Source: an uncultured Gemmatimonadota bacterium
GTDB taxonomy: Bacteria > Gemmatimonadota > Gemmatimonadetes > Gemmatimonadales > Gemmatimonadaceae
DNA: 64,000 nucleotides
Assembly: GCA_902826615.1 (NCBI GenBank)
Contig: CADEFN010000012.1
Span: 4,521-68,520, forward strand
Reading direction: 5' to 3'
Under the pieces are notes generated by a model that did not search any database, was not told the origin of the DNA, and was given only the letters and a program-made list of their open reading frames with translations. The position numbers were made by a program, and so were the translations under genes. The first letter of the stretch is position 1. Each line of letters starts with the position of its first letter. Of the stretch, positions 21,737 to 59,667 are shown piece by piece.

Positions 21737-22843
21737 ATGCAGAGTACTGGTGTCGCTGCAGTCACGGCGTTCACCGCACATCGGGAATGGGCCACACGCC
21801 CCCCCGACGAGCGGTTCGCCAGCGTCTCGACGCTCTACGAGGCGGCGCGCGACCGGCGCGTTCGCACCGAAGAGCGGGTGATCGAGACGAGCCAGATTCA
21901 GACCGACGCGCCGACTGACGACGGACTCGTGCTACGCGAGCCGTCCGGACAAACCTCGGCGCTCACGCACTGGAGCTTCGAGCAGCTCGCCGGCATCGCT
22001 GGTGCGCCGCCTCGCTACCTCCGCACGCTGCCGGCGTCGATCGCATCCAGTGCGATCAACTTCGGACTGCGTCGGCAACGCCGCGACGGGCTGCAGCTCT
22101 TCGTGGACCAGGCCGACCCACGGACCGTACACGCCGTCACCTCCCAGAGGTACGAGCGCGTGCACCACGACGAGCTGGCAGCGCGCGTGCTCGACCTGAT
22201 GGGGGAGCACCCCGCGTGGCACCTGCCGCCTGGCTACAAGGATGGCGTGTTCGGCGCTGTACGGATTCCGTCTGGCGCCTATCTGGGAGATCGCGACATG
22301 TTCCTCTTCTTGATCGACGGGAACCGATCGCTTGACGACCCGACCGACCCCTCGCAGGCTGGAATGTTCCGTGGGTTCATCCTGCGGAACAGCGATGTCG
22401 GAGCCGCCGCTCTCACCCTGGATCTGTTCCTGTTCCGCGCCGTGTGCGGGAACCACATCATCTGGGGCTTTCACCACCTGGCCGGCTTCCGCCGCCGGCA
22501 CGTGGGCGCGTCGATTCACGAGGCGTGGGCGGGCTCCCTTGAGTCCGTGCGCGCGTCCCTCGACGCCAGCCTCGACGACGACCGCGCCATGCTCCTGAGA
22601 GCCACCACTCAGGAACTCGGCGCGTCGCGCGAGGAGGTCCTCAACACGGTCACGGCGCGACTGGACCTGTCGCGTAAGGTGGCCGACGAGGCCTACGGGT
22701 TGGCTGACGCCTACGAGCGGAATCCGCGCTCCATCTGGGGGTACGTGCAAGGGCTGACACGACTCAGCCAGCGCACGCCCTGGCAGGACACGCGGTTCGG
22801 GCTCGACCAGGCGGCCAGTCGCCTGCTCGCCACGGTCAGCTGA
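21737..22843 (+). CDS. DUF932/DUF945-like protein (common ICE/plasmid leading-region protein)
   Basis: 368 aa. Size, context next to RadC, and segments such as HWSFEQLAGIAGAPPRYLRTLP and FLFRAVCGNHIIWGF match my recollection of DUF932. This needs an HMM check. Confidence 0.6.
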   Translation: MQSTGVAAVTAFTAHREWATRPPDERFASVSTLYEAARDRRVRTEERVIETSQIQTDAPTDDGLVLREPSGQTSALTHWSFEQLAGIAGAPPRYLRTLPASIASSAINFGLRRQRRDGLQLFVDQADPRTVHAVTSQRYERVHHDELAARVLDLMGEHPAWHLPPGYKDGVFGAVRIPSGAYLGDRDMFLFLIDGNRSLDDPTDPSQAGMFRGFILRNSDVGAAALTLDLFLFRAVCGNHIIWGFHHLAGFRRRHVGASIHEAWAGSLESVRASLDASLDDDRAMLLRATTQELGASREEVLNTVTARLDLSRKVADEAYGLADAYERNPRSIWGYVQGLTRLSQRTPWQDTRFGLDQAASRLLATVS

Positions 22844-23161
22844 CCGTGACGCGTCGCATGCCGGGCTGAGCCCGCACGCCCCGACAACCACACCCAGCAG
22901 TGCGAGCGCGGCCTGACGCCGCCTCGCACTCCTGCGGGCGACCCGTGTCGCTCGCGGCAGCCTCCGCTCTCAGAGCCAGGCGCTCCGACGGAGGGATCCG
23001 CGATGCGCTCGACTCCACACGTCACTCCACTAGCCGCCGGTCCGGGCGGCATCCCCTGTCCACCTCTTTTCGCCATTCGTCGCGCGTTCGCGTACCCCGC
23101 CGTCGCGACACGGCCGTCGTGTGCCCCCGAGCCACGCCCGCCGCTTTCCGGGAGACCGTCC

Positions 23162-23680
23162 ATGTCTGTTGACTCGCTGCCTCCATCCCGCGGCCATCGC
23201 GTCCGCGAGTTCGTCTGCTCCTACCGCACCCTCCGCGACGATCAAGGTCAGGCCGTCCGCCTGTCCACCCTCGCGCTCAGCGATCCGCGCATTGCCGCGG
23301 ACACGCTGGCGCCGCTCCTCGCCCAGGAAGCCGTCGAGATCTTCGCGGTGGCCTGCCTCTCAACGCGCCATCGGCTGCTGGCGTGGCACGTGCTGTCGCG
23401 CGGCACGCGATCCGCGACGAGCGTCTCGCTGCCCGACGTCTTCGTCCCGGCGTGTCTCACGCCCGGCACGACCGCCCTGCTCGTGGCGCACAACCACCCG
23501 AGCGGAGATCCCACCCCGAGCGCGGATGATGCCCGACTCACCCAACGACTCGCGCAGGCGGCCGATGTGATCGACATCCCGCTGCTCGACCACCTCATCG
23601 TCGGGGCCGACGGGCGCTACTACAGCTTCCGTGAAGCCGGCGTGCTGCCGCCGCGAGGTCTCGGCCTCGCGCGGCTCTGA
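23162..23680 (+). CDS. radC: RadC-like JAB/MPN domain protein
   Basis: 172 aa from ATG 23162. JAMM motif: LLVAHNHPSGDPTPSADDARLTQRL, then IPLLDHLIVGADGRYYSFRE. Confidence 0.8.
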   Translation: MSVDSLPPSRGHRVREFVCSYRTLRDDQGQAVRLSTLALSDPRIAADTLAPLLAQEAVEIFAVACLSTRHRLLAWHVLSRGTRSATSVSLPDVFVPACLTPGTTALLVAHNHPSGDPTPSADDARLTQRLAQAADVIDIPLLDHLIVGADGRYYSFREAGVLPPRGLGLARL

Positions 23681-24698: not shown

Positions 24699-24923
24699 TT
24701 GGAGCGCGCCATGAGTGTGCAACTGCAATCGACCGATGTGTTCCTAACCGTGCGCGACGTGGCCGAGCGGCTAAAGGTGAACGAAGAGACAGCGCGTCGG
24801 CTCTTCGCGAGCGAGCCAGGGGTGATCGTGATCTGTTTTCCGAGGCGCGGGCGCCGCGTCTACCGGACACTGCGAATTCCAGAGGCAGTCTTCAGGCGCG
24901 TTGTTGAGAGGTTCGTGAGGTAA
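24699..24923 (+). CDS. excisionase-family (HTH_17/MerR-like) DNA-binding protein
   Basis: 74 aa. VFLTVRDVAERLKVNEETARRLFASEPGVIVICFPRRGRRVYRTLRIPEAVFRRVVERF is an HTH followed by a wing. It is a paralog of 43756..43971. Confidence 0.6.
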   Translation: MERAMSVQLQSTDVFLTVRDVAERLKVNEETARRLFASEPGVIVICFPRRGRRVYRTLRIPEAVFRRVVERFVR

Positions 24924-25537
24924 AGGATGAGCTTGGGGTCGCCCGTGGACCACACGGAAGACCTCATGGGCGGGCGACAGGGCTGGGGTTCCTATCACCA
25001 AAAACGTCTGATCGGTTACGTGGCCGACCATGAGCCGCGTCGCGGGATGGTCGGCCCGACGACAGGGCGCTGCGGTCGGCTCGTGCAATGGCGCTCCGAG
25101 CAGTTCGTAGTCTCGCGGGTGCTTAAGCCCAAGACTTCAGCTCGGTCAGCGTTCGCTGGCGACTCCCGACGGTCGAAGTCGAAACCCCGTGCGCTTGACG
25201 ACCGTTGCCGCAGTCGGAACCGCAAAGCCGTGGCGCGCGGGACCAAAGCTGCACGCAATCTAGCATTCACGCCTTGCCAGAGTCCTAAGACTGCGGTATG
25301 GTGTCCGCGAAAGTTGACCCTCGCCCCAAGAGTGTTCAACCTTCTAGCACTACGCCGGGCCGACCCTCCGCGGACCCGTTTGGCTCTAACCGAGTAGGTA
25401 ATACCGCACCGCCAATCGCCGACTGCCGAGCGAGCGATACCGCTTCGCGCGTCGTGTTTGACTGGCGAGAATTCGGACCGCACGGAAGAAGCCGATCTGG
25501 CTCGGCGAGCCCCGCCAGCGCCTTGGGAAGGGAAATC

Positions 25538-25930
25538 ATGGGTCGTGTTGAGCGAGTTGGCCTAAGGATCCTTGCGGCATTCGCCTTCCTGATCGCGACT
25601 ACTGTGCTTCGCGTAGCGGGGATCGGCGGTGCCGAGTGGCTGCTAAAGCGCATACAGGCTCGACGGACGGCCACAAACGACGTTGAGCAGAGCCGAGAAC
25701 TAGCCGCTACTGTCGACCACGCTCTCTATTACTTCGACCATCCATCACTCTGTCTGTCGAGATCGCTAGCGCTTACGATGGTGTTGCGGTTGTGTGGAGT
25801 AGACGCCACGATGGTCACAGGCATCCGTCCAGTTCCGCTCAAGGGCCACGCGTGGGTCGAGGTCGGACACTCAGTAGTGAACGACGACCCTAGGGTCGGG
25901 CAGATCTACCTTCCATTGAGTCGATTCTAG
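25538..25930 (+). CDS. lasso peptide leader peptidase, B2 protein (transglutaminase-like Cys protease)
   Basis: 130 aa from ATG 25538. The catalytic layout is C-LSRSLALTMVLRLCGVDATMVTG...KGHAWVEVGHSVVNDDP (Cys, His, Asp), as in the lasso B2/Transglut_core3 family. It sits directly upstream of the cyclase. Confidence 0.75.
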   Translation: MGRVERVGLRILAAFAFLIATTVLRVAGIGGAEWLLKRIQARRTATNDVEQSRELAATVDHALYYFDHPSLCLSRSLALTMVLRLCGVDATMVTGIRPVPLKGHAWVEVGHSVVNDDPRVGQIYLPLSRF

Positions 25931-25934
25931 ACGC

Positions 25935-27755
25935 ATGCGCGACGTAGGCTTCGTTGGAAGAATCGCACTGAAGGCTCAACCGCCAGTTGCGGTGGCGCTG
26001 TCTAAGCGCTCTGACTGGGACATCTCCGTGCGTCCTCCTGGCAGTGCCATCGCATATGACACGTCGTGCGTTATAGCCGAGACAGGAAATCGCAGAGGCG
26101 TTGTATGCGTCTACGGCTGCGTGTCGCAGGTGGACATCGCTCTCTTGGAAGACAAGCCGGACCTTGCGCCAGCCGTCATCGAAGCGTGTGCCTCTTGGCA
26201 GACCGAGTTTGCGCTTGCCTGCTGGGACTCGTTCCAAGGCCGCCTGATCCTTGCCAGAGACTCAGCCGGGGCGGTCCCTCTGTATTACCTGATCACAGAT
26301 TCAGAAATAGTGTTCAGCACCCAGTTCAAAGATCTTCTTCCATTTTCCCAGCAACAGATCGACGTGGCGCATCTCGCGACTTGCGCGGCCGCAGCTGAGG
26401 ACCTCGAACATACCTGCTACAAAGACATCAAGAAAGTGCCGCCAGGCTCATACGTTGACTCGCGCAGTGCGACCGGTCGTCCAGTCGCCTACTGGCACAT
26501 CGAGGCTATACCCGCAATAGGTGCAATCTCGGACCGCGAGTGTGAGTCTCGCACTGCAGCCCTAATTGAGCGCGCCGTGTCGCGACGTCTGAAGGGAACC
26601 GCCACCGGTTTCGCATTGAGCGGCGGCTGGGACTCGTCGTGCCTGCTAGCCGCTGCGTTGACTGTTGCCGACCCGTTACCCTTTCAATGCCCGACATACT
26701 CTTACGTCTACGACATCTCAAAAACATCCGACGAACGGCGCTATATTGAGGCCGCTGCGCAGCACTTCCACGTGAAGAATCGGCAGCTAGCAGAGTCAGA
26801 TTATCCGTTTCTCTCCGATTTAGCACCGGCGGCATCCTGGCTACTTCGGCCAACTCCGTCTCTGGCACAGTTCAGCATGCTTAGGGCGCACAGCCAAGCG
26901 TGCCATTCCGACGAGGTTGCGACCATCATCTCCGGATTCGGAGGAGATCAGTTGTTCTTGAGTGGTGATATCGCATTCCCTGTCGCAGCCTTAGGCCAGT
27001 GGCGCCGGCCTGTCGCGTCGGCTAGGCAGCTCATGCACTGGAGCGCCTATCTCAAGAAGAGCCTGCACGGCCTCGCCTTTGGCGCAGTCGCAGAATCGCG
27101 TTGGTTTGGTGGGCGCGTGCCTGCCGCAGGACGAGACTATCCAGAGTGGTTGAGCAGCAGCGCGAGTGCGTATCTGCACCAAATTGCCGCGACTGCCCGC
27201 CAGCGTGTGCGCCGGGTGGGCGTAGTTCAAGCCCGCCGAATCGAACTAGCGGAAAACGCCATTCGGATTGTTGCCGGTGGATACTCCCAAGATGCGCTCG
27301 CGCCATGTAGGGTTAGTTATCCATACTGTGACCGCGACGTGCTCGAGTTTCTGGTCGCGGTTCCTGCAACTCAGCTGCTCAGGCCCAAAGAATGGCGCTC
27401 TCTTCAGGCTCGAGTGTTTTCGAGCCGCCTGCCTAAGGCCGTTGCCTCCCGCACCGGGAAACGGGGGCCAGGCGAGGCAGTCGTTCGTGCGGTGGCGGCG
27501 GGGTGGACCACGTTGGAGAGATGGTTTCGTGATTCGCGCTGCAAAGACCTAGGACTCGTCGGCGATAAGTTTGACCAATATCTTATGACCGTTAAGCACG
27601 GAAATCAGCACTGGACTGGGCATTTGATGTGGATGATCGCCCTGGAGGCTTGGCTACGTCAGCATGAGTCTCACGAGCGTGAAGCATTGCTGCGCGCACC
27701 ACGTGCGCGCCAACGAGCGGTCGCGTCTAGCGCCGAGGAGGAGGTGAGAGCATGA
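25935..27755 (+). CDS. lasso peptide cyclase, C protein (asparagine synthetase B-like)
   Basis: 606 aa. LILARDSAGAVPLYY is followed by the ATP-pyrophosphatase loop FALSGGWDSSCLLAAAL (SGGxDS). There is no N-terminal Cys2 nucleophile, as in lasso cyclases. Confidence 0.85.
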   Translation: MRDVGFVGRIALKAQPPVAVALSKRSDWDISVRPPGSAIAYDTSCVIAETGNRRGVVCVYGCVSQVDIALLEDKPDLAPAVIEACASWQTEFALACWDSFQGRLILARDSAGAVPLYYLITDSEIVFSTQFKDLLPFSQQQIDVAHLATCAAAAEDLEHTCYKDIKKVPPGSYVDSRSATGRPVAYWHIEAIPAIGAISDRECESRTAALIERAVSRRLKGTATGFALSGGWDSSCLLAAALTVADPLPFQCPTYSYVYDISKTSDERRYIEAAAQHFHVKNRQLAESDYPFLSDLAPAASWLLRPTPSLAQFSMLRAHSQACHSDEVATIISGFGGDQLFLSGDIAFPVAALGQWRRPVASARQLMHWSAYLKKSLHGLAFGAVAESRWFGGRVPAAGRDYPEWLSSSASAYLHQIAATARQRVRRVGVVQARRIELAENAIRIVAGGYSQDALAPCRVSYPYCDRDVLEFLVAVPATQLLRPKEWRSLQARVFSSRLPKAVASRTGKRGPGEAVVRAVAAGWTTLERWFRDSRCKDLGLVGDKFDQYLMTVKHGNQHWTGHLMWMIALEAWLRQHESHEREALLRAPRARQRAVASSAEEEVRA

Positions 27756-27952
27756 AATCAATCGAGAATGGAAACGAAGCGCTGCAGGGTCAGTGGGCCG
27801 CGCCGTCGTGGGAGGCCCCGGAGCTGGTCGATCTCGGGAACGCTGTCGAGATCATCCAGGGTGGCGGCTCGTGCTGCCCCGATCACGACAACGGCTACAT
27901 CGGAGTGCCCTTCACGTCGTCGAATGACGACGAGTTCGCTGACGGCCAGTAG
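27752..27952 (+). CDS. putative lasso peptide precursor (A), 66 aa
   Basis: Sequence: MKSIENGNEALQGQWAAPSWEAPELVDLGNAVEIIQ / GGGSCCPDHDNGYIGVPFTSSNDDEFADGQ. The leader has the W/Y-x-x-P-x-L-x3-G motif. The core starts with Gly and has Asp at position 8. The start overlaps the cyclase stop (ATGA). A perfect hairpin follows the stop. Confidence 0.6.
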   Translation: MKSIENGNEALQGQWAAPSWEAPELVDLGNAVEIIQGGGSCCPDHDNGYIGVPFTSSNDDEFADGQ

Positions 27953-27968
27953 CTAGCGCACGAGTGTT

Positions 27969-27998
27969 GGGGAGGCAATCCGCAAGGATTGCCTCCCC
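27969..27998 (+). terminator. perfect 13-bp stem / 4-nt loop hairpin GGGGAGGCAATCC-GCAA-GGATTGCCTCCCC after the precursor gene (intra-operon attenuator candidate)
   Basis: Read directly, 17 nt after the precursor stop codon. There is no U-tract, so it is more likely a partial terminator or RNA-stability element. Confidence 0.4.
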
Positions 27999-28018
27999 AG
28001 CACAATCTCGAGGTGTCT

Positions 28019-28273
28019 ATGAGGCTTTCGCGGTCAGCGAGTTTAGTGTCCCATGAACGGGGTGCATTTGTGATGCAGACATCGTCGGGTAGATGCTACG
28101 GGATGAACCCGTCCGGAGCCCTCGTGCTTCATGCGCTACTAGAGAGCAACGGCAGCTCCGCGACAGTGGCAGACAGTCTGGCTGAGCAGCTGGGGCAAGA
28201 TCGCGACGAGATGCGTAGAATGGTGACGCAATACGAAGAAGAGTTGCGTCGCAAGGGAATTCTCGTCGACTAG
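28019..28273 (+). CDS. lasso peptide B1 protein (PqqD-like RiPP recognition element)
   Basis: 84 aa from ATG 28019. FVMQTSSGRCYGMNPSGALVLHALLESNGSSATVADSLAEQLGQDRDEMRRMVTQYEEELRRKGIL matches the PqqD-family pattern: beta strands, then a three-helix bundle. Confidence 0.7.
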   Translation: MRLSRSASLVSHERGAFVMQTSSGRCYGMNPSGALVLHALLESNGSSATVADSLAEQLGQDRDEMRRMVTQYEEELRRKGILVD

Positions 28274-28290
28274 AAGACATAAGCAAACCA

Positions 28291-30672
28291 GTGCCAACGC
28301 CCTCTGCCGAATTCGTCAGGTTATCGCTTAGTTTGCCACGGATGTCATGGAGCCGGTGGACTCGCCAACCACGGGAGTTCGCCCTGGCGCTGAGTCTAGT
28401 CGCGTTCGAGGCATTCGTTCTAAGTTACGCGCTCATCACCTTCGACTATGGGGTCAGAGCCCCAGTGCCAATTAGTAACGCGGAGCGCTATTTTAGCGTG
28501 TGGCTTCGGGACTCACAGCGGGGCACCTCGCGGGGCTCATTCTCGCAAGCTGAGGCGACGGCGGTGGACGGCGCCCTCCAAGGCATCGCCGACACCATTG
28601 CCACCAGTGTGTCGCGAAGCACCGTGTCGGTGGCCGGCAGCTCCGCGAGAATGGTGGTCGCTAGTCTAAGCGCCAGTGACGTTGCCGAACTCGCCATGCC
28701 AGGCATAGGGGCAGGGCAGTCGAGAACGGATGAGGCCGGAGCCGCCATTAACCTAAGCGCGGCCGCCGCAAAGCGGCTCGGAATCGATCGGTACAAGTCT
28801 AGTGGAAGTGTGCTGCGGGTGTCTGGTAAAGCGGTGGCGTTGAGCAACGTGTTTGACGACCGCTTTGGCTGGGCCGGGGCGGATGCCGTATTGGTGGCTG
28901 GAGCAAGCGAGCGGACGGGGCCCTACTCGCTCGTGGTGAAGCTGGCCGCGCCCCGGCAGGAATCGAGAGTCGCCCAGCAGGTTCTCTCGGGCGTCACGGC
29001 GTCCGGAACGCCGACGTCATCCTCTGCCCGAGTCGAACTGCAGCCGCTGGCAGACAGTCTGTATCCTGGCGCGCGAAAGTCATTCGCGGAGCTTGTGGCA
29101 CTCAGCGGGGCAGCGGCCGTGGCGTGTGTGCTGGGCCTCTTCGGAGTCGTCGTCGTGCGCGAGCGGCGGATGGCACCCTATGCCCACATTCAGCAGGCGA
29201 TCGGTCAGACGCCAAGAATTGCGCTATGTGAGCGGTTGGCGGACTACGCGCTTGTGTTCGGCGTGGGTGGGGCCATAGGCGTGGCGGCCAGCTACTTGAC
29301 CGGCGAAGCCTTGCAAGTAGTGCTGCCGAGGAACTTCCTGCCGAAGGGCGCGTTGATGCAGCTCGACAATAGCCACGTCTGGCGGCTCGCTCTAATGATT
29401 GCACTGTCTGCGTTGGTGGCGGCTTGTGTGGCGCACGCGCTGTCGTCTGCGGTCGCGAGCAGAACGCCAGTCGTTGCGGTGTTCGGGGAACGGGGTTTGC
29501 GACGAATACTGGGCGCGTCGGTGGTGCTCCAGGTTGCCGTAGCCACGTGCGTCTCCGTTCTGGCGAACTGGTATCGAACGGATCTAGTCGTCAGAGACCG
29601 AATGTACGACCAGGCGGAGTTGCGTGGCACATACGTAGCAGACTACGACAGCGCCCTCGGAACAAGATTGCTCTCTGCAGCCGAGGAAATCGAGCGGACT
29701 CTGTCTGAAAATGGCGTATCGGCCGTAGCTGCATTCACGGCTGGCGGGTTCCATCCACTAGACTTGGCGACGACGGGAGTGGCGTCGGCGCCCGGCGAAC
29801 AACCATTCAAGGAAGCGGCAGTTATTCAGATGACTCCGCACTATTTGAAGTCCAAGAATCTTCGGATACTACGTGGACGGGGGATCGAGACTGGCGATGA
29901 GCAATCGCGACGACAGGTCGCTCTGATTAGCCAAGCGCTAGCAAGAGAGATAGAAGTGGCGGGGCGATCTGCACTAGGTGCGCAGATCTTTCTCCCAGAG
30001 TTCGCACGGTTTAGAGCCGAGCTTGCGAGCGTGCCGTTCGAAGTGGTTGGGATAGTCGAAGACGCGTCATATTTCGGTTGCAAGGTGGCGTCGTGCCCGA
30101 CAGTGTACATACCATCAATGGTCCTGGCCGTGGCAAGGACTCTGGTACTCAGGGTGGGCAACGGTCACGGGCCGGTGGAGCAGCTTCAGGGCATCTTGGA
30201 GCCGACACTGCGCGGACAAGCGGCGCTAGAATCAGTCGCGAGCCGCGTAGCCATTCGGGTGACCGATCAAGCCAGAGCGAGGATGCGGCTGAGCCTCGCC
30301 GCAATGGCGCTGATGCTGGGAATGTCTGCGCTCAGCGTGTTTGCAGCGGCAGATGCGGCCGCCCAGCAGGCGATGCCTGAACAGGCGATGCGCTCTGCTC
30401 TGGGCGCGTCGCCTTGGAGCCTCGCCGCTCGATTTGGTCTCTCACGAGGAAGGTCGGTCGCATTAGGCACACTCGCTGGCATGGCGGGCGCTAGGCTGCT
30501 CGAGACGAGATTCCTTCCGGTAGACCAAGCGCTACGCGGCGGCGACTACGCCGCGGCGTGCTTGGTCATTGGGGCTGTGTCCGCCATGGCAATCGCGCCC
30601 ACGCTCAGGCGTGTGTGGGCTAGCGAACCCATGAGGATGCTAGACAGCGGGCAGGCACTGCGCCATGTCTGA
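28291..30672 (+). CDS. duplicated FtsX/MacB-type ABC transporter permease (793 aa)
   Basis: The topology is one TM helix, an extracytoplasmic domain of about 230 aa and three TM helices, repeated twice. This is the classic double-FtsX permease. No ATPase gene is adjacent. The GTG start lies 18 bp after B1. Confidence 0.65.
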   Translation: MPTPSAEFVRLSLSLPRMSWSRWTRQPREFALALSLVAFEAFVLSYALITFDYGVRAPVPISNAERYFSVWLRDSQRGTSRGSFSQAEATAVDGALQGIADTIATSVSRSTVSVAGSSARMVVASLSASDVAELAMPGIGAGQSRTDEAGAAINLSAAAAKRLGIDRYKSSGSVLRVSGKAVALSNVFDDRFGWAGADAVLVAGASERTGPYSLVVKLAAPRQESRVAQQVLSGVTASGTPTSSSARVELQPLADSLYPGARKSFAELVALSGAAAVACVLGLFGVVVVRERRMAPYAHIQQAIGQTPRIALCERLADYALVFGVGGAIGVAASYLTGEALQVVLPRNFLPKGALMQLDNSHVWRLALMIALSALVAACVAHALSSAVASRTPVVAVFGERGLRRILGASVVLQVAVATCVSVLANWYRTDLVVRDRMYDQAELRGTYVADYDSALGTRLLSAAEEIERTLSENGVSAVAAFTAGGFHPLDLATTGVASAPGEQPFKEAAVIQMTPHYLKSKNLRILRGRGIETGDEQSRRQVALISQALAREIEVAGRSALGAQIFLPEFARFRAELASVPFEVVGIVEDASYFGCKVASCPTVYIPSMVLAVARTLVLRVGNGHGPVEQLQGILEPTLRGQAALESVASRVAIRVTDQARARMRLSLAAMALMLGMSALSVFAAADAAAQQAMPEQAMRSALGASPWSLAARFGLSRGRSVALGTLAGMAGARLLETRFLPVDQALRGGDYAAACLVIGAVSAMAIAPTLRRVWASEPMRMLDSGQALRHV

Positions 30673-31858
30673 ACCTGCCAAGGGAGCGTCGACTCTCGGG
30701 GGAGTGCAGCCCGCGAGCGCGGATTGCACCGGGGACCGCCCTCAGCCACCGGGCAAAGGGAACGGCGCGGTAGGAGACGACCTCTTGGTCGGGCTCCCAA
30801 GCCTTTTGGCGTGGGGCACGTCCGGGGCAATCCTACAAGACGCCGAGCGCGTCTATGCGGAGTGGATGTGGCGGAAGCTGCGAGGGTGGGCAGAGCACCA
30901 CGGGAGGGAGCTTTGGGACGAGGTCGTTGCCCTGCCTGTAGAGAGCCAGCGTCGGCTGCTGTGCGCACCATCTACATTTCGTCTGTTGGGTATGTCCCCG
31001 GGTCTGCCGTCGCAAGCGGAAATCGGAGAGTTGAGACGGCGTGTAGCCGTTGAGAGATGGAGACTAGATCCAATACAGGCGCACGCGGAAGGATGGTCGG
31101 CGTTGGGCGACTGCCACGCTGTGGGTGGAGGTCATGAAGGGCCCGAGAGCGTCGGAGGCCCGCCGGAAGAGCAGATCCGCCGACGCCTCGTCGGGGCAGT
31201 CAGCCTGGATCTATGCAACCCCTATTCGATGAGCATGCCGGCGGGTGCCTGGGACGGTGGAGTGGGGTATCCCGAGTCGCGCTTGCCCGAATTGAACGCC
31301 GCCGTCGGTAGAGGGCTCGACTGCATCGCGCGCGCAAGCGGTACCGCACGCGCGCTTGTCGATGCAGGTGTGCGCGTCCTGCTCCCAAAAGAACTGCCGA
31401 ACGCTGGCCAGGCGACGCCTTCTGCGTCGTGGCGAGCGGCAATCGGGCTCGTTGCCATTGGCAATCCTCTTCGCGCAGAATGGTCTCCTCAAAGAATGGC
31501 TGATGCGCTCGTGCATGAAGCAATCCATCAGTTGCTTTACAAGGTGGAATTGCGCCAGCCGTTCTTCGTCGACATGGGCACCGCATCTCGCCTTGAGGTT
31601 GTGTCCCCATGGAGCGGGAGCACCTTGAAGCTCACGCAGTTCGCTCACGCGTGTCTCGTCTGGGCCGGGCTATGGCACCTCTGGCGGCGGTGGGAAGGAA
31701 AGGAGCCTGCGGTGGAACAACTCCGCAGGAGGGCGGCGGGCGGATTCGCAGGAGGAACACCGTTGAGCCTGCTCACCGTAGAGGCGCGGAGGGCGATTGA
31801 TCGCCGTGCCCTCGACGCGCTGGAGATGGTCTGCGAGTCAGTGGCGCAACGCGACTGA
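30665..31858 (+). CDS. HEXXH-motif domain protein (putative peptide-modifying enzyme)
   Basis: 397 aa. Motif: RMADALVHEAIHQLLYKVELRQPFF. It overlaps the permease gene by 8 nt and is the last gene of the lasso operon. Confidence 0.6.
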   Translation: MSEPAKGASTLGGVQPASADCTGDRPQPPGKGNGAVGDDLLVGLPSLLAWGTSGAILQDAERVYAEWMWRKLRGWAEHHGRELWDEVVALPVESQRRLLCAPSTFRLLGMSPGLPSQAEIGELRRRVAVERWRLDPIQAHAEGWSALGDCHAVGGGHEGPESVGGPPEEQIRRRLVGAVSLDLCNPYSMSMPAGAWDGGVGYPESRLPELNAAVGRGLDCIARASGTARALVDAGVRVLLPKELPNAGQATPSASWRAAIGLVAIGNPLRAEWSPQRMADALVHEAIHQLLYKVELRQPFFVDMGTASRLEVVSPWSGSTLKLTQFAHACLVWAGLWHLWRRWEGKEPAVEQLRRRAAGGFAGGTPLSLLTVEARRAIDRRALDALEMVCESVAQRD

Positions 31859-32346
31859 CCATGCGGACGAGCCTCTGCCTCGTCGTGGGCGCCGCAGTCG
31901 CGTCAGTGGACCATGTGGGGCAACTGAGGTCGCGGCCGGTCGCACAAAGGCATGGCGATTGTCTCTGTGTGGTGCGAAAAGTGCCGACAGGCAATTGTAG
32001 ACGAGAGCCTTGTGATGCTGGTCCGCCGTGACCTGAATGCCATGGAGCAACTATTGACTGCCGCGCGAGCTCAAGACTGGCCCGGCAGGCCGCCGTGCTG
32101 GCGCGCGTCTCAAGTGCGACGGCAGATGGGTGTCGGAGCGGCGTGGTCTGCGTGCGCGACCGAGCGCCTACAGCGTTAGGCGCCTCAGAGAAGTCAGCCT
32201 TGTATGCGGAAGGAGAGTGGCAAGTGCCCCCATTCGTGACAGACGGAGAGTGCGGCCTGGCGGGACAGGTGCAAGTAACGTGTCGGGGCGGGGCTGCTCA
32301 CCTTGGGCGAGGCCTGCGGCGCGTGAGTCTGCGCAGACGGGTTGAG

Positions 32347-32850
32347 ATGGCCGTCGGTATTGCGGCCTTTGTGTTGGCCCATGTGTCGGTAGGCGCTCAA
32401 AGCCAGGTGCCGGTCGATGCTGCGTCCAGCGGCGGACTGGTCTACCGCTCGCCGCTAGAACGCGAGTTGGCCGATGAGGTCATGTGCACGTGTGGCGGGT
32501 GCAACTTGCCAGCTGGAAGTTGTGGCATGATGAACTGCGAAGGAAAAGCGGCTCAACTGACGAAAGTGAAACGGCTCGTGTCGCAGGGCATGGGCAGAGA
32601 CGAGATACTCAAGGCGTTCGTTCGTGACGCTGGCGGACAGCACATTCTGGCTAGGCCACTAGACGATGGGTACCATCGACTTCTGTGGCTCGTTCCATAC
32701 GCGTTCGCAACGCTATCTGCTTTTGCATTGGCGTGGACGACGCGCAGATGGGCAGCGACGAAATCAACAGATGCGACTCGCGACCGGAACGCGGGGATAG
32801 ACGATGCCATTAGCGCCCGACTTGACGACGAACTCCACGACCTTGACTAG
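32347..32850 (+). CDS. CcmH/NrfF-like thiol-redox membrane protein
   Basis: 167 aa from ATG 32347. The track ORF 32095..32850 over-extends. The sequence has a signal peptide, the Cys cluster VMCTCGGCNLPAGSCGMMNCEGKA, GMGRDEILKAFVRDAGGQHILARP and a C-terminal TM helix, which is the CcmH layout. Confidence 0.5.
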   Translation: MAVGIAAFVLAHVSVGAQSQVPVDAASSGGLVYRSPLERELADEVMCTCGGCNLPAGSCGMMNCEGKAAQLTKVKRLVSQGMGRDEILKAFVRDAGGQHILARPLDDGYHRLLWLVPYAFATLSAFALAWTTRRWAATKSTDATRDRNAGIDDAISARLDDELHDLD

Positions 32851-32912
32851 CACAATGGTCAGGCGCCCGGTCAGGCGACTCCACTGCCAGCGCCGATACC
32901 GAAATCGAGTCA

Positions 32913-33413
32913 ATGACGACGCTTCGTGATATCGGCGAGGTCGCTATTAAGGTGATCGGGCTGTACTACGCGGGTCGAGTGCTGTCCCTGTATGTAGCGC
33001 TTATGCTGACGCCGTATCTGCTCTCTCCGCAGGCCTTTTCTGCGTCTGACCCCTTATTGGCTGCGAGTATTTCCTCAGCAGTCGGCAGTCTCGTCCTCGC
33101 GATCGTGGCGCTGAGTTCGTCAAGACGCGTGGCCGGGTGGACGTTCCCGGCCAAGGCGCTGAGTAGCGGCGGGAGCACGAAGGAGTGGCTGTTTGTTGGC
33201 ATAGCCGTCTTGGGTGCTTGGATTGCTGCGGATGCGACTGTTGGGATTCTTCGGTCTGCGGCCGCTTTTGTCTACTACAGTCAGACGGGATTGCCGCTAG
33301 CCTCTCTTGAGCGGTCAACGCCTCAAGTCGTCGCGAACGTCGTGACGGTTGTTGTCGGTGTCGTGCTTATGTCGAGGGCAAGGCGAGTCGCCCAGCGGCT
33401 TGATCGAAACTAG
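32913..33413 (+). CDS. membrane protein (166 aa, 4 TM)
   Basis: Four hydrophobic helices. No family was recognised. Confidence 0.5.
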   Translation: MTTLRDIGEVAIKVIGLYYAGRVLSLYVALMLTPYLLSPQAFSASDPLLAASISSAVGSLVLAIVALSSSRRVAGWTFPAKALSSGGSTKEWLFVGIAVLGAWIAADATVGILRSAAAFVYYSQTGLPLASLERSTPQVVANVVTVVVGVVLMSRARRVAQRLDRN

Positions 33414-33764: not shown

Positions 33765-34022
33765 TGACGTCCCCCCGATTCTGAGTAGCGTTTCGGTTTA
33801 GAGTCCGGCCTAGCGAAAGGGTCGGACGATGAAGAAGCGGTTCACGGAAGCACAGATCGTGGGGTTCCTGCGCGAGGCCGATGCCGGGATCCCGGTCAAG
33901 GACCTCTGTCGCAAGCACGGGTTCTCCGACGCGAGCTACTACCTCTGGCGCAGCAAGTTCGGCGGCATGAGCGTGTCGGACGCGAAGCGGCTGAAGGAGC
34001 TCGAGATCGAGAATGGCCGGCT
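33765..34022 (+). mobile_element. 5' fragment of an IS3-family (IS407-group-like) element: left inverted repeat plus the first ~64 codons of orfA
   Basis: TGACGTCCCCCCGATTCTGAGTAGCGTTTCGGTTTAGAGTCC is followed by orfA (33829...) that is nearly identical at DNA level to the orfA of the intact copy at 41110..42317. Identity ends after ...GAGAATGGCCGGCTG (~34022). The track ORF 33829..34044 is the truncated orfA. Confidence 0.75.
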
Positions 34023-34023
34023 G

Positions 34024-35006
34024 TTGACGCTCAGCCAGTCCTGACCATCCGTCCTCATTGAGCGTTGACTACGGCGGCGCAGCGTCAGGTGTCCGCGCTG
34101 GGCTTCATTCCTGGTCGGAATGGTCGGGAGCACCTGGTCGGTGCTCGGTGAGCAGAAACTCTCTCTCCTGTTCAGAATCTTCCGAGCGGCAACAATCCAG
34201 CGCGTCCTGCCGGTGGCGACGGTGGCCAGCGAGCGCTTCCAGGCATGGTTGCGAGCCAAGAACGCCCAAAGCTGAGAGGTCTACGTCGGCACGAACGCAA
34301 TGGCGCCCGGACAGCGGTCGAGGACGCGCGAAAGCGTGGCGTCTGTACGGCACGTGTGCCTCGATGCGGACGAGGCGGGGCAGCGGCTTCTGGCGGCTGT
34401 TGCAGCACTGCCCGACATCCCGCCGCCCTCCTACGTCCTGCGGACATCACCGGGCCGCGTTCGCGTGCTGTGGCGCGTGCAGGGACTCGACATACCGAGG
34501 TTGGGGGCGCTGCAGAAGCGCCTGGCCAACCAGCTCGGCGCCGATGTTGCAGCGACGTCGGCCGCGCAGCTCACCCGCCTTCCTGGATTCCTCAACCACA
34601 AGCGAAGAGAACCGTCCGCAGTGTCACTGCTCCTCGGCGCGCTGAGTCGAACCTATGCGGCCCGCGAGTTCCCTCAAATGAAGGGGTAGCGTCATTGCAC
34701 CGAAGCGGCCAAACGAACCGCGTAACCCGAGCCCGAACGTACCTGCTGTCAGTCCCGCCTGGGGTGGCGGGCGAGCACGGGCACACGCATACGTTCAGAA
34801 TGTGCTGCAGAGTCGTTCGCGGATTCGCGCTAAGCGAACACGACGCGCTGGCAGCGTTGGTTGAGTGGAACGAGCGCTGCGTGCCGCCTTGGCCGGCGTC
34901 GCATCTGGCGGCCAAGGTGCGAAACGCAGGGCGTTACGGCCGCGAGCCACTCGGCGCCCGCGTGCTCGAGCACGGCTGCGTGCCTACGTCACGGTATTGC
35001 GGCTAG
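34024..35006 (+). pseudogene. decayed RepB-type DNA primase / PriCT gene
   Basis: One frame reads ...RVLPVATVASERFQAWLRAKNAQS, then an in-frame TGA (34273-34275), then EVYVGTNAMAPGQRSRTRESVASVRHVCLDADEAG...YVLRTSPGRVRVLWRVQG...GADVAATSAAQLTRLPGFLNHKR. These are RepB-primase-like motifs. A PriCT-like segment FALSEHDALAALVEWNERCVPPWPASHLAAKVRNAGRYG lies in a different frame (34800..35006). The 5' end abuts the IS fragment. Confidence 0.5.
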
Positions 35007-35584: not shown

Positions 35585-35842
35585 ATGACTGGGACCAGAA
35601 TGTGTCTTAGGATTATCGGGCTTGCGCTGTTGCTTTGGCTGAAGCCAGCGCCCGCGCTCGCTGCCTGCAGTGAATACATGTGTAGCTGGTGGGTCTCCGG
35701 CGAGGAGACCTGTTACTTTTGCGGCGACACCTTCACGCTACCCAACGGCCTTGAGGTGCGATGCTACTGTATTCAAAGCGGCGCTGGCGCTGGCAGCGGC
35801 ATAATTCTGCCCGTAATGCAGGATCCCAACGGCGGATGGTGA
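35585..35842 (+). CDS. small secreted Cys-rich protein (85 aa precursor)
   Basis: Signal peptide MTGTRMCLRIIGLALLLWLKPAPALA. The mature part ACSEYMCSWWVSGEETCYFCGDTFTLPNGLEVRCYCIQSGAGAGSGIILPVMQDPNGGW has 6 Cys in the first 41 residues. GGAGGG lies upstream. Confidence 0.5.
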   Translation: MTGTRMCLRIIGLALLLWLKPAPALAACSEYMCSWWVSGEETCYFCGDTFTLPNGLEVRCYCIQSGAGAGSGIILPVMQDPNGGW

Positions 35843-41141: not shown

Positions 41142-41996
41142 TTAGAGTCCGGTGGTTACTTTCGCCGTCTTCGTCCGTGCCGTCAACTGCTCCGCGTAGG
41201 CGGCGGGCGTCAGCCCGCCGAGTCCCTTCTTCGGACGTTCTTCCTTGTACTCACGCCGCCAGGCCTCGATGACGACCTGCGCATGCGCCAGGCTCGTGAA
41301 CCAGTGCTCGTTCAGGCACTCGTCGCGGAAGCGACCATTGAAGGACTCGATGTAGGCATTCTGCGTCGGCTTGCCTGGTTCGATCAGCCGCAGCGTCACG
41401 CCGCGGTCGTGCGCCCAGGTCAGCATGGCGCGCCCGCAGAACTCCGATCCGTTGTCCGTACGCAGCACCTGGGGCAGGCCGCGCGTGACGGCGAGCGTAT
41501 CCAAGACGCGAGTGACGGGCAGGCCGCCCAGCGCCCGCGCTGGCACGACGGCCACCGCTTCCGTGGTCGCGTCGTCGACGATCGTCAGGCACTTCAACAC
41601 GCGCCCCTCGGCCGTGCGATCGAACACGAAGTCGGCCGACCACACCTCGTTCGGCGCCTGCGGTCGAGCGAGCGGCTGCCGATCGGCGAGTGGCACCTTC
41701 TTGCGGCGCCGGCGCCGGACCTGCAGCCGCGCTTCCGCGTAGAGGCGGTCGACCCGCTTGTGATTGACCCGTCGACCTTCTTGCCGCAGCTTCAGGTAGA
41801 TCATGCCGGCCCCGTACCGGCGGTGGCGGTGCGCCAGGGCGGCGATGCGATCGCGCAGCGTGGGATCGGGATCCGGGCGTGGGACGTAGCGAAACGCCGA
41901 GGCGCTCATGTGGACGACCTGCAGTCCGTGCCGCTCGCTGAGCCCCCGCGTGACCATCTCCCGCACCACCTCGCGTCGAGCCGGTGCGGTCACCAC
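41142..41996 (-). CDS. IS3-family transposase OrfB (DDE/rve integrase core), expressed by -1 frameshift from orfA
   Basis: Sequence: ...[33 protein letters not shown]...[57 protein letters not shown]. This carries the D, D and E catalytic residues and the K/R signature. Confidence 0.85.
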
Positions 41997-48285: not shown

Positions 48286-49497
48286 GTGGCGCTAAATCTG
48301 TACAGGCGGCACCGGGAAGCCTGCGAAGCCGGCCGCGCGTTTGACGCCCGCTCGGGCGAGTTCGAAGAGCGGAAGCGCGACTGGAAGCGCTGCGGCTGCC
48401 TGATTTTCGCCTCGGGAACGCTCGGCCGGAAGTTCTCCCGCCGCTCCCTCAACACCGACGACTGGGCGAAGGCTCGCGAGCTCGCCGGCGAGTTCGAGAA
48501 GGCCGACTCATGGGCCGACCGCCCAGCTGCGCCGCCGCCCCCAGAGCCCGTCGCTGAGAAGCCGCGCGTTACGCTCGAGGCGGCCTCCGAAGCCTACCTC
48601 GCGAACCGCGAGGCTGCCGGGCTGAAGCCTCCCACCCTCCGCAAGTACGACACGTTCGCCAAGCAGATCGGGGCCTTCGCCGACGACCTAGGCTACGTGA
48701 TGCTCGATCAGTTCACGCCTGGCGACATCGATCGATTCTGGGCGAACTGGAAGCTCGGCCCGAGGGCTAAGGGCAAGCGCCTGACGACACTGCGGGCGTT
48801 CTTCCGCTTCTGTGTCAACCGGAAGTGGATCCCCGAGTCGCCGGTCAGTTCCGACATCAAGGCGCCTGTCGGCTCCAGCCGCGGCGCCAACAAGGCGCCC
48901 TTCACTGACGACGAGATCAACCGGATCATCGCGGCCTGTGAAAGGGTCAAGGTTGAGTGGAAGAACGAGACCGGGACTGGCGAGTGGACCGGTGAGGACC
49001 TGAAGGATCTGATCTGGCTGATGCTCTACACCGGGTTTCGCATCTCGGATGCAACCCTGTTCAGCATCAAGCGGCTGCACGGCGACCAAGTGTTCGTCCG
49101 TGCGAAGAAGAACGGCGGGGACGTCTTTGCGTACGTGCCCGACTGGCTGGCGGAACGGCTTGCGGTGCGCGCCAAGCGATTCGGTCAGCGGCCGTTCATC
49201 GTGGCGCGCTCCGATCGGCTCGAGACGATCACGAACATCTGGCGCCGACGCCTTGCCAAGGCGTTCGCCGCGGCAGGCCCGTTCGAGGAGACGCCGACGC
49301 CTCATCGATTGCGCCACACGTTCGCCCGCATCCTCCTACAGAAGGGCGTTCCCGTCGCCGACGTGGCCGACCTGCTCGGCGACGACGAGAAGACGGTGCG
49401 TGACCACTACGCCCGGTGGGTGCCAGAGAGGCAGGAGCGGCTGACCAGGATCCTCAAGGACGCCTTCAGCGAACGGCCGAAGCCGCCCACCAATTGA
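48286..49497 (+). CDS. int: tyrosine-type site-specific integrase
   Basis: 403 aa. The catalytic domain has ...GFRISDATLF (Arg I), HRLRHTFARILLQKGVPVADVADLLGD (H-x-x-R) and VRDHYARW (Tyr). It sits next to the tRNA-like att unit. Confidence 0.9.
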   Translation: MALNLYRRHREACEAGRAFDARSGEFEERKRDWKRCGCLIFASGTLGRKFSRRSLNTDDWAKARELAGEFEKADSWADRPAAPPPPEPVAEKPRVTLEAASEAYLANREAAGLKPPTLRKYDTFAKQIGAFADDLGYVMLDQFTPGDIDRFWANWKLGPRAKGKRLTTLRAFFRFCVNRKWIPESPVSSDIKAPVGSSRGANKAPFTDDEINRIIAACERVKVEWKNETGTGEWTGEDLKDLIWLMLYTGFRISDATLFSIKRLHGDQVFVRAKKNGGDVFAYVPDWLAERLAVRAKRFGQRPFIVARSDRLETITNIWRRRLAKAFAAAGPFEETPTPHRLRHTFARILLQKGVPVADVADLLGDDEKTVRDHYARWVPERQERLTRILKDAFSERPKPPTN

Positions 49498-49773
49498 GGC
49501 CGTCGGGCCTCTGTTCATCCACCAGTGTTCGACCGGCTGACGCCCTCGTCGAAGACGGCTCTCCTTACCGCATAGTTCGCGTTACTCACCGCCTGGGCGC
49601 CGCACGCTGGCGACACCAACCAGAAGGCGCGGCTGATCTGCGAGCATTGCGATCGACACGTCCAAGTCGCAGCGCGCGTTCGGTGAATCGTCTTGACATC
49701 GACGACTCGGCTATAGGAAAGTGCATCACCGTGCTGCATGTTCGCCATATTTTCGCCACCTGCGCGTCCTGTT

Positions 49774-49971
49774 ATGCCAACCTCTAAACACCGTATTTCC
49801 ATCAGTTTAGCTGACACCGAGTACTCCGAGCTGTCTGACGCTGCAGAGAACAGCAGAGTGTCGATGGCTTGGCTTGCGCGGCAAGCCCTGATCGAATTCC
49901 TCGAGCGGCAGCGGAAGAAACGCGGGCCCGCCCCTGTTCCAGTGCAGACGCTGCCGAGGGCTGCGCGATGA
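49774..49971 (+). CDS. ribbon-helix-helix (CopG/Arc-like) protein
   Basis: 65 aa from ATG 49774. KHRISISLADTEYSELSDAAENSRVSMAWLARQALIEFLER is a beta strand plus two helices. The stop overlaps the methyltransferase start (ATGA). Confidence 0.55.
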   Translation: MPTSKHRISISLADTEYSELSDAAENSRVSMAWLARQALIEFLERQRKKRGPAPVPVQTLPRAAR

Positions 49972-58750: not shown

Positions 58751-59667
58751 CCATGCTGTCATTTCGCGAGGCCCAGACCGTCGAAGACCTAGCCGACCTG
58801 CTCTACGATGTCCTGCCCGGAAGCGGAAACAGCAGGACCGCCTTTCCGCTCGCGGCCGCGCAGGCTGGCGTTGGCGACCTATGGGTCCCAGGCAGCAAGC
58901 GACCTGCAATCGTCCAGCTTCTGACCGCGACGCTCGAACAAGGCCGCTCAAGTTTTGCCGAGCTGATCGTGGCGATCGTCCGCCAGGCGATGACCTACCG
59001 GCGCGGCAAGGGTAACCCTCTGACTCGCGCAGAGATCGATCGACTGAACAGCCTACTTCCTGGTGTGGAGTTCAGGATTCCAGAGTTGCTGGATCCAGGT
59101 TTTCTGAGCAGTTTCAGACGTGGGAATGCAGAGGAGGCTGCGCCGCAATCGACAGCGGCGTTGAGTGCGGCTAAGGCGCAAGAACTCGCCGCGCTGCTCA
59201 TCGAGATCACCAAGCTGAATCCGCAGGCGCGGGGCCTGCGTTTCGAGGGCTTTCTCAACGAGTTGTTCGCCGGATTTGGGCTTGCGCCGCGCGGCGCCTT
59301 CCGGCTTGTGGGGGAGCAGATCGACGGTAGTTTCAGGCTGAACGGCCAGACCTATCTGGTAGAGGCAAAATGGCATGGTCCGCAGATCGGCTTCGCCGAC
59401 CTCATGACCTTTTCAGGTAAGGTCAGTGGAAAGGCATCGTGGTCGCGCGGGCTGTTCGTGAGCAGTTCCGGGTTCACCGCTGACGGCCTCGAGGCATTCT
59501 CGCGCGGGCGGCAGACCAACCTGATCTGCGCTGATGGACTCGACCTCTATGAAGTGCTCTCGCGCCAGGCTTCCCTAATCCAGGTTCTCGAAGCGAAGGA
59601 GCGCCGGGCGGCCGAGACGAACCTGGCGTTTGTCGCCGTGCGTGACCTCAATCTTGGCGGAAACTGA
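58747..59667 (+). CDS. Mrr_cat-like PD-(D/E)xK restriction endonuclease domain protein with unknown N-terminal domain, coupled to gajB
   Basis: 306 aa. The start overlaps the gajB stop (ATGA). The C-terminal half is [65 protein letters not shown]...[10 protein letters not shown]. This shows E-x-x-D-G ... (V/L)-E-A-K-W, the Mrr-type core. Confidence 0.65.

Follow-up and report, generated by a model that had tools for sequence, protein, structure and literature searches.

What does a compact block of six genes in the genome of an uncultured Gemmatimonadota bacterium make, and what part do its permease and its HExxH-motif protein play? The block occupies positions 25538-31858 of a 64,000-nucleotide (nt) stretch of contig CADEFN010000012.1 (assembly GCA_902826615.1, positions 4,521 to 68,520 of the forward strand); this whole stretch is referred to below as the window, and all positions are numbered along it. 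A first-pass annotation had proposed a biosynthetic gene cluster (BGC) for a lasso peptide, with its B function split between two genes (B1 and B2), a duplicated FtsX permease not of the McjD type, and an additional tailoring-type enzyme. Profile and fold evidence agree with that proposal, and the block is confirmed here as an intact lasso peptide gene cluster. We have high confidence in the assignment of the core machinery (leader peptidase B2, cyclase C, precursor A, and the PqqD-type protein B1); the wider reading, that the six genes form an intact operon for a tailored lasso peptide and are carried as cargo in an element resembling an integrative and conjugative element (ICE), seems probable.

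What is special here is the position of B1 behind A, an Ile(-2) leader without an accompanying kinase gene, the combination of an HExxH-type oxygenase with an ADOP-like permease, and a pair of adjacent cysteines within the predicted ring; within the literature that could be searched, all but the first of these are new for a lasso cluster. The cluster does not challenge current understanding, and is a well-defined lead for genome mining.

Gene organization and core enzymes

As first annotated, six open reading frames (ORFs) lie packed and co-directional on the plus strand (Table 1), in the order B2, C, A, B1, ADOP-like permease, and HExxH protein. All are intact, with their catalytic residues kept. 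Taken together, the profile matches and catalytic signatures described below go far beyond what chance would produce. B2 and C are separated by 4 nt; C and A overlap by 4, the precursor start and cyclase stop codon forming an ATGA; gaps of 66 and 17 nt follow A and B1, respectively; and the permease and HExxH genes overlap by 8. This layout had been called atypical. That holds for B1, which follows A, but the B2-C-A order with a trailing precursor gene is normal for the clade, since A is also placed after C in the cluster of the nearest cyclase relative (L003, described below) and in published acidobacterial metagenomic lasso BGCs (BGC 482.1; PMC9064862).

Table 1. Features of the lasso peptide gene cluster (positions in the window; aa, amino acids)
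Feature	Position	Strand	Description
Promoter-like site TTGCCA-17-TATGGT	25274..25302	+	about 235 nt upstream of B2; weak candidate
B2, lasso leader peptidase, 130 aa	25538..25930	+	transglutaminase-like Cys protease with N-terminal hydrophobic helix
C, Asn-synthetase-like lasso cyclase, 606 aa	25935..27755	+	PP-loop S229GGWDS
A, precursor, 66 aa	27752..27952	+	leader 27752-27859 (36 aa); predicted core 27860-27949 (30 aa, GGGSCCPDHDNGYIGVPFTSSNDDEFADGQ)
Hairpin, 18-bp stem with GCAA loop	27964..28003	+	directly 3' of the precursor gene, without a T-run
B1, PqqD-type recognition element, 84 aa	28019..28273	+	PF05402, 36.1 bits (cutoff 23.4)
ADOP-like duplicated FtsX/MacB-type permease, 793 aa	28291..30672	+	TIGR03434, MacB_PCD, FtsX
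Alpha-ketoglutarate (alpha-KG)-HExxH-type oxygenase, 397 aa	30665..31858	+	H284EAIH288, Y292, S314PW, H328

Profile hidden Markov models (HMMs) matched all three of the proposed core proteins B2, C, and B1 (NF033537, PF00733, and PF05402, respectively). B2 scores 70.1 bits against the lasso-specific model NF033537 lasso_biosyn_B2 (cutoff 33) and also matches PF13471 (1.7e-19). Its C...H...D motif, read directly in the sequence, consists of C72 (in CLSRSLAL), H104 (in HAWVE), and D116, with spacings of 32 and 12 residues, which we take to be those of C150, H182, and D194 in McjB. A sequence-only search of the PDB with B2 returned nothing useful.

The SGGWDS motif of the cyclase can likewise be read directly. 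The protein matches PF00733 (3.4e-25, 89.9 bits) and GATase_7, and begins MRDVG..., without the Cys2 nucleophile of the glutaminases. A scan of contigs from GTDB species genomes found no relative of it, and a scan of metagenome contigs (JGI collection) with an alignment of its C-terminal part found nothing.

B1 matches PF05402 (8.2e-9) and NF033530 (5.7e-9), and aligns weakly but over its full length with TfuB1 (6jx3_B), the recognition element of a lasso pathway. From its sequence it is predicted to recognize the leader, as do the recognition elements (RREs) of other peptides that are synthesized ribosomally and modified post-translationally (RiPPs).

The gene coordinates first proposed hold, with one replacement and two ambiguities. 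B1 is more likely to start at ATG 28019 than at TTG 27989, since the latter sits inside the 18-bp hairpin and both gene callers chose the ATG. The permease may start at GTG 28291 or at ATG 28342 (then 776 aa). For the HExxH gene, TTG 30785, with AGGAGA upstream, is an alternative start, since residues 1-36 are unconserved and modeled with a low predicted local distance difference test score (pLDDT). A scan for promoter consensus sequences returned 3 sites where 1.8 were expected, which is not evidence of function. A 156-aa ORF upstream of B2 was considered as an accessory gene and rejected: it has no family match, and its sequence is Arg-rich and of low complexity.

Precursor peptide

The 66-aa ORF proposed as the precursor stands up well: its leader register, Gly(-8), Ile(-2), Gly1, and Asp8 all fit, and it is conserved in a sister cluster. 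It is preceded by the strongest Shine-Dalgarno (SD) sequence in the operon (GGAGGAGGTGA). Counted back from Gln36, the leader reads W(-17)-E-A-P(-14)-E-L(-12)-V-D-L-G(-8)-N-A-V-E-I-I(-2)-Q(-1), in exact register with the Tyr(-17)/Pro(-14)/Leu(-12) recognition motif. Ile(-2) is a rare variant, validated experimentally in BsfA and noted in Bradymonadales, Acidobacteriaceae, and Sphingomonadales (PMC10368454).

The predicted core has a net charge of about -6 and would be closed into a Gly1-Asp8 ring; Asp8 is the only acceptor within ring range that is conserved between this precursor and that of the sister cluster. At 30 residues the core is long yet within the known range, which includes achromonodin-1 (30 aa) and pandonodin (33 aa; PMC13352647). 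It has only two cysteines, C5 and C6, adjacent to each other inside the predicted ring. Fifteen contigs, from several sequencing projects, encode exactly this precursor peptide; a word-indexed protein search with it matched only itself.

The 81-nt stretch around the hairpin that follows the precursor gene folds at -49 kcal/mol (z = -7.6), with none of 200 shuffled sequences as stable. The hairpin is probably an mRNA stabilizer or a partial attenuator, setting the ratio of precursor to enzymes. A 14-bp hairpin lies in the same position directly 3' of the precursor gene in the sister cluster, with a sequence unrelated to that in the window.

A sister cluster

This sister cluster, on an ENA contig (L077), has the order insertion sequence (IS) element, 3' fragment of a cyclase gene, 65-aa peptide, PqqD, 788-aa permease (MacB_PCD/FtsX), HExxH protein, and the start of an ABC_membrane gene. 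The IS element (L077 positions 1-1271; rve and HTH_Tnp_1, minus strand) has removed B2 and some 390 N-terminal residues of the cyclase, and this copy is probably dead. Between the window and L077, identities are 51% for the C-terminal part of the cyclase, 54% for the precursor (over 54 aa), 41% for B1, 34% for the permease (over 786 aa), and 38-39% for the HExxH protein. Because L077 keeps the C-A-B1-ADOP-HExxH block at 34-54% identity, the permease and HExxH genes were inherited together with C, A, and B1, as one five-gene unit (B2 being missing from the truncated L077).

Aligned, the two precursors share EAL..W..P.WE.PE.VD.G.AV..IQ/G...CCPDH..G.IG, with the slash at the end of the leader. 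An FTSS run is also common to both by eye, offset one column by a gap, and the last 9 residues are unrelated. The comparison indicates that the leader register, Gly1, Cys5-Cys6-Pro7-Asp8-His9, and FTSS are under constraint. A scan of the JGI metagenome contigs with a precursor alignment found no further family member; with none in the GTDB species genomes or the JGI metagenomes, the lineage appears rare (or those collections lack the family).

The HExxH protein

The additional tailoring enzyme suggested by the first-pass annotation scores above the cutoff of TIGR04267 (IPR026337, aKG-HExxH beta-hydroxylase; 54.2 bits, cutoff 40; residues 218-363) and is predicted to have the fold of ChlH. In an alignment of 33 sequences of the family, no variation occurs at H284, E285, H288, Y292, S314, P315, W316, or H328. 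The AlphaFold2 model (pLDDT 87, predicted TM-score 0.87) is matched best in the PDB by the crystal structure of ChlBHExxH, an alpha-KG-dependent oxygenase domain (8s5f; Foldseek E 2.4e-9, TM-score 0.57/0.67), followed by SjiH (22ob), on which a literature search returned nothing relevant. These are the only strong matches; zincin peptidases appear only at E of about 0.1 (4l7a, E 0.12). A weak sequence match to ChlH spans HExxHQxLY...SPW...H (HEHRHQ in ChlH), at about 13% identity. A word-indexed search with the protein gave one weak match only, and an exhaustive HMMER search found 928 representatives among 1.84 billion, the closest being the L077 protein (P0012), at 39%.

The characterized members of this family suggest what it might do. 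ChlH hydroxylates His and Asp, and PesO hydroxylates Pro; PflC and PosC carry out Gln and Asn hydroxylation and oxidative backbone cleavage (PMC12636437, PMC13060819, PMC12257519). A role for BpmH in the biphenomycin pathway was predicted in one paper and its involvement reported later (PMC12636437, PMC12257519). Known substrates of alpha-KG-HExxH enzymes are His, Asp, Phe, Gln, and Pro (PMC13060819). Pro7, Asp8, His9, and Phe18 of the core are conserved residues of these types and are all candidate sites; since each of them matches a family substrate, the site is not predictable. Full-text literature searches, within what was searchable, linked no HExxH/TIGR04267 enzyme to any lasso BGC. On balance, the protein appears more probably than otherwise to be an oxygenase that acts on the lasso peptide.

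The permease

The permease aligns almost end to end with TIGR03434, the model for acidobacterial duplicated orphan permeases (ADOP; residues 57-784 on profile positions 46-800 of 803), despite a score of 85.6 bits that is under the cutoff of 622, and for this reason is called here ADOP-like, a divergent relative. It also matches PF12704 MacB_PCD (3.9e-13) and FtsX (1.5e-4). By hydropathy, two large loops (about 220 and 240 aa) can be recognized, around which six strongly hydrophobic segments are grouped, a layout consistent with a duplicated FtsX/MacB architecture with two extracytoplasmic domains. A sequence-only PDB search with it yielded nothing useful.

In the literature searched, no FtsX-type permease was linked to a lasso BGC, and the ADOP family name had only two incidental mentions. 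BGCs of acidobacteria have been reported to include MacB/FtsX genes, in association with antibacterial products (PMC7849407). The chances that this permease serves in export of, or immunity to, the lasso peptide seem about even.

Other relatives and their neighborhoods

The nearest relative of the cyclase (P0009) lies in a complete B1-B2-C-A lasso locus (L003), with a Thr(-2) leader and the core GSVGCTNDGHCCSKFVAED. On the 3' side of its lasso genes, L003 (1-12795) encodes NeuB, proteins like UDP-GlcNAc 2-epimerase, CMP-sugar transferase, and cyanophycin synthetase/Mur ligase, and an ABC transporter, gene content that hints at a lasso peptide decorated with a sugar or an amino acid.

The closest relatives of the HExxH protein in GTDB genomes come from six loci (L004-L008 and L010), five labeled Acidobacteriota and one (L006) Heliobacteriaceae. 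In all six the HExxH gene (30-35% identity) is linked to an ADOP of ~807 aa; the loci also carry a C39-peptidase ABC transporter and, usually, a TPR protein of ~740 aa, and in four of them (L004, L006, L008, and L010) a MacB-type ATPase lies beside the pair. They look like other peptide-export clusters, of an uncharacterized RiPP- or bacteriocin-like system. A search for conserved small ORFs as candidate precursors in L004-L010 returned only alternative-frame noise. P0014 lies near a C39 ABC transporter; the contigs of P0013, P0016, and P0002 were too short to show a neighborhood or gave no information. That ADOP and HExxH genes pair beyond lasso clusters argues for a functional link between the two; it also leaves room for a semi-autonomous module.

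More distant HExxH genes adjoin asparagine synthetase (AS)-like genes in two Vicinamibacterales loci (L013, 2500-13000; L014, 7500-17000). Scanned together, these gave one PqqD and matches to HPr-kinase-like, sulfotransferase, and nucleotidyltransferase families, and B2 was detected in neither. Lasso clusters of the kinase type are one possibility and a different AS-dependent class of RiPP another; since amidation or nitrile formation at C-termini is also within the reach of AS-like enzymes, the two loci are left unclassified.

Genomic context

The setting had been described as an integrative island, in which the cluster was more AT-rich than the type IV secretion system (T4SS) regions; the DNA is ICE-like, and the difference in composition is confirmed. 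T4SS genes lie on one side of the cluster, and a RepB primase fragment, IS elements, and a tyrosine recombinase on the other. GC content is 61.4% in the cluster and 67.2% in the T4SS block (relatives of the lasso cluster have 51-59%). The codon composition is also distinct: third-position GC (GC3) lies between 0.62 and 0.68 in the five lasso genes other than the short precursor gene (0.81), vs. 0.83-0.88 in the T4SS and integrase genes. The lower GC3 and mobile surroundings suggest recently acquired cargo, in a region that is ICE-like and rich in defense genes.

Upstream of the cluster are genes for VirB4/TrbE, TrbI, VirD4, VirB11, DUF932 (21737-22843), RadC (23003-23680), and an Xis-like helix-turn-helix (HTH) protein; the last of these is a 74-aa HTH_17 (excisionase/AlpA-like) protein at 24699-24923. 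No tRNA genes were found in the window.

Downstream, 32095-33413 encodes two proteins, first one like CcmH/NrfF, in which a motif (MCTCGGCNLPAGSCGMMNC) is unusually rich in Cys, and then one of 166 aa with four transmembrane segments. Both genes were considered as cluster members and rejected, the first starting 236 nt downstream of the HExxH gene and both being absent from L077; a thiol-redox role towards the Cys-Cys peptide is conceivable but unsupported. Beyond them the 3' flank has signs of IS activity and gene decay. An orphan IS3-type HTH_Tnp_1, a truncated N-terminal domain of a RepB primase, and then a minus-strand rve transposase are found at 33829-34689 and 41142-41996. An 85-aa ORF at 35585-35842, called as a gene by JGI, has a signal-peptide-like N-terminus followed by seven cysteines (CSEYMCSWW...CYFCGD...CYC) and no family match; judging by these features, it could encode a small secreted protein or a bacteriocin-like peptide.

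Further on are a tyrosine recombinase (48286-49497), an N6/N4 DNA methylase (49869-51971), and a ResIII helicase/nuclease (51781-54327); together, 48286-54327 looks like a type III-like restriction-modification module, located where the element probably has its integration end. An AAA_15 and OLD-type TOPRIM nuclease and then a UvrD-family helicase (55165-58750) form a gene pair typical of the Gabija defense system, and are followed by an Mrr_cat nuclease (58747-59667).

A possible pathway and its alternatives

The pathway sketched here builds on what is observed: which genes are present, the families to which HMMs and fold assign them, their catalytic motifs, the register of leader and core, and the inheritance of C-A-B1-ADOP-HExxH as one block. 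Its inferred parts are the sequence in which the steps occur, the residue that is hydroxylated, the fate of Cys5 and Cys6, what the permease does, and the threading. The 66-aa precursor would be translated from its strong ribosome-binding site, and the 3' hairpin would protect or partly terminate the transcript, probably leaving the precursor in excess over the enzymes. The B1 RRE would bind the leader through W(-17), P(-14), and L(-12). The alpha-KG-HExxH oxygenase would most likely act on the leader-bound linear peptide, adding at least one hydroxyl (+16 Da each). There are precedents for B1-assisted tailoring of a linear precursor in CanE and MslH (PMC9266682) and in BsfK (PMC10368454), and PflC is leader-gated (PMC12636437). 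B2 would cut after Ile(-2)-Gln(-1), and the ATP-dependent cyclase would join the Gly1 amine to the Asp8 side chain, giving an 8-residue ring that contains Cys5-Cys6 and is threaded by an acidic tail of 22 residues. The ADOP-type permease would handle the product at the membrane, for self-protection or for extrusion from the periplasm to the outside, with its ATPase encoded elsewhere.

Several findings weigh against so complete a picture. The lasso model NF033535 is the top NCBIfam match of the cyclase, but at 124 bits it is under its cutoff of 525; the generic AsnB model TIGR01536 comes second, and another lasso model, NF033561, third and far below its cutoff. The nearest relative of the cyclase, in L003, is only 29% identical (word-indexed search; all others are at or below 29%). 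In the leader, Tyr(-17) is replaced by Trp and Thr(-2) by Ile. At the six GTDB loci with the closest HExxH relatives, which also have ADOP permeases, lasso genes were not detected, so the pair could act independently of the lasso peptide. The lasso peptide itself is a predicted product.

The remaining objections concern the permease. The first-pass annotation was right that it is not of the McjD type, but its description as the exporter is less secure: no ABC ATPase was found in the 64 kb, either by tblastn with a MacB-type ATPase or as a Walker A motif, which occurs only in the T4SS ATPases, and the window has no McjD-type half-transporter (ABC_membrane plus ABC_tran). L077 has an ABC_membrane gene adjoining the HExxH gene on its 3' side, in addition to ADOP, and the window does not. 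MacB-type pumps are believed to take their substrates from the periplasm. ADOP may therefore not be the primary exporter; in view of the extra gene in L077 and the periplasmic substrates of MacB-type pumps, immunity or extrusion from the periplasm to the outside is at least as likely a function for it.

The pairing of HExxH and ~807-aa ADOP genes in six genomes without detected lasso genes could also mean that the two form an autonomous module here, lying beside the lasso genes and transporting, modifying, or giving immunity to a different peptide. We consider this unlikely, given the synteny of C-A-B1-ADOP-HExxH between the window and L077 at 34-54% identity and the tight or overlapping spacing of the genes; nor was a second precursor-like ORF found near ADOP/HExxH in the window, and RiPP tailoring enzymes of the HExxH family are known to move between RiPP classes (PMC13060819). 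Alternatively, the HExxH protein might cleave peptide bonds, as a zincin or in the manner of PflC/PosC, trimming the tail after FTSS to leave a 21-residue lasso peptide, possibly amidated. HExxH is the classical zincin motif, the conservation between the two precursors ends after FTSS with the last 9 residues unrelated, and PflC and PosC show both oxidative and hydrolytic backbone cleavage (PMC12636437); yet fold and profile fit the oxygenase clade and not the zincins (4l7a at only E 0.12), a conserved C-terminal recognition motif like ARMD is absent, and hydroxylation is the commonest activity described for the family, so that cleavage seems quite unlikely.

That the whole cluster is carried along by a mobile element, silent or in decay and making nothing, has in its favor the IS-truncated L077 copy (with its loss of B2 and the cyclase N-terminus), the absence from the window of the ATPase and a McjD-type exporter, and the mobile, IS-rich surroundings. 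With six intact ORFs that retain their catalytic residues, a strong SD sequence before the precursor, and the identical precursor on 15 contigs from several projects, we regard it as improbable. Least credible is a linear hydroxylated product, with the AS-like protein amidating the C-terminus or forming a nitrile there, as happens in the nitrilobacillin pathway. An AS-like protein and an alpha-KG-HExxH enzyme do co-occur in the non-lasso pes cluster (PMC13060819), the cyclase is under the lasso-specific cutoffs, and at L013 and L014 the HExxH gene adjoins an AS-like gene with no B2 detected. Here, though, the AS-like gene lies between a genuine lasso B2, scoring above its cutoff, and a PqqD RRE, the register of the leader is canonical, as are Gly1 and Asp8, and the nearest cyclase relative (L003) sits in a complete B1-B2-C-A lasso cluster; this reading is highly improbable.

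Returning to the tailored lasso peptide, an extension of the proposal can be offered tentatively, as one that is rather doubtful at present: ADOP and HExxH would be a conserved, portable RiPP finishing module, mainly of genomes labeled Acidobacteriota, used in C39/ABC-exported clusters and in this lasso lineage alike. As a new subtype of lasso peptide, the product would have a conserved Cys-Cys-Pro-Asp-His motif in its ring that is oxidatively modified or binds metal, without the ring-tail disulfides of classes I and III. If true, this would give the uncharacterized ADOP family its first functional context, the handling of oxidized RiPPs at the cell envelope; the conserved ADOP-HExxH linkage is in any case a testable handle on what ADOP permeases do. 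Being located on conjugative DNA, the cluster is also relevant to the spread of RiPP pathways in uncultured bacteria of soil type.

Comparison with known systems

The closest parallels are the split-B BGCs with Ile or Val at -2 (Bradymonas bsf, its Acidobacteriaceae and Sphingomonadales relatives, and paeninodin-type clusters). They share with the window cluster separate genes for the PqqD RRE (B1) and the Cys protease (B2), a cyclase of the AS-like type, the YxxPxL register from -17 to -12, Ile(-2), and a Gly1-Asp8 ring (PMC10368454). All those reported encode a kinase or phosphotransferase, whereas the window cluster has none; it differs also in having Trp for Tyr(-17), B1 behind the precursor gene, and a tailoring enzyme and transporter of other families.

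As a lasso pathway with an iron/alpha-KG oxygenase, the cluster resembles that of canucin A, where CanE makes beta-hydroxy-Asp on the linear precursor with the aid of B1 (PMC9266682). CanE is, however, a canonical Fe/2-oxoglutarate enzyme (PMC9266682), while the window enzyme has the unrelated HExxH fold of ChlH. In the literature searched, lasso hydroxylations were limited to CanE and the unassigned ResE (PMC9266682). ChlH/ChlBHExxH (8s5f), BpmH, PflC/PosC, and PesO have the HExxH...SPW...H signature and fold in common with the window enzyme, and all are RiPP tailoring enzymes; the characterized members act in cyclophane (triceptide), biphenomycin, Gln-rich Pseudomonas, and nitrilobacillin pathways, and the window member lies in a lasso BGC. 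Lasso peptides are valued as scaffolds, and the range of what can be made grows with every tailoring chemistry that is added; next to CanE, an oxygenase with the HExxH fold would bring in a new class of enzymes that tailor them.

Like McjD of microcin J25 and the products of other lasso D genes, the permease is a membrane protein encoded inside a lasso operon, presumably for export or self-protection. McjD is an ABC_membrane domain fused to ABC_tran, in contrast to the duplicated FtsX/MacB-type protein of the window, with its two periplasmic domains and neither an ATPase domain nor an ATPase gene; L077 has both types. Finally, the lasso peptides of disulfide classes I, III, and IV also have cysteines in their cores, but these link ring to tail or tail to tail (PMC13352647). 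With C5 and C6 adjacent in the ring, the window core could have only a vicinal disulfide, free thiols, bound metal, or some other modification, and its ring-embedded Cys-Cys-Pro-Asp-His is without counterpart among the four disulfide classes.

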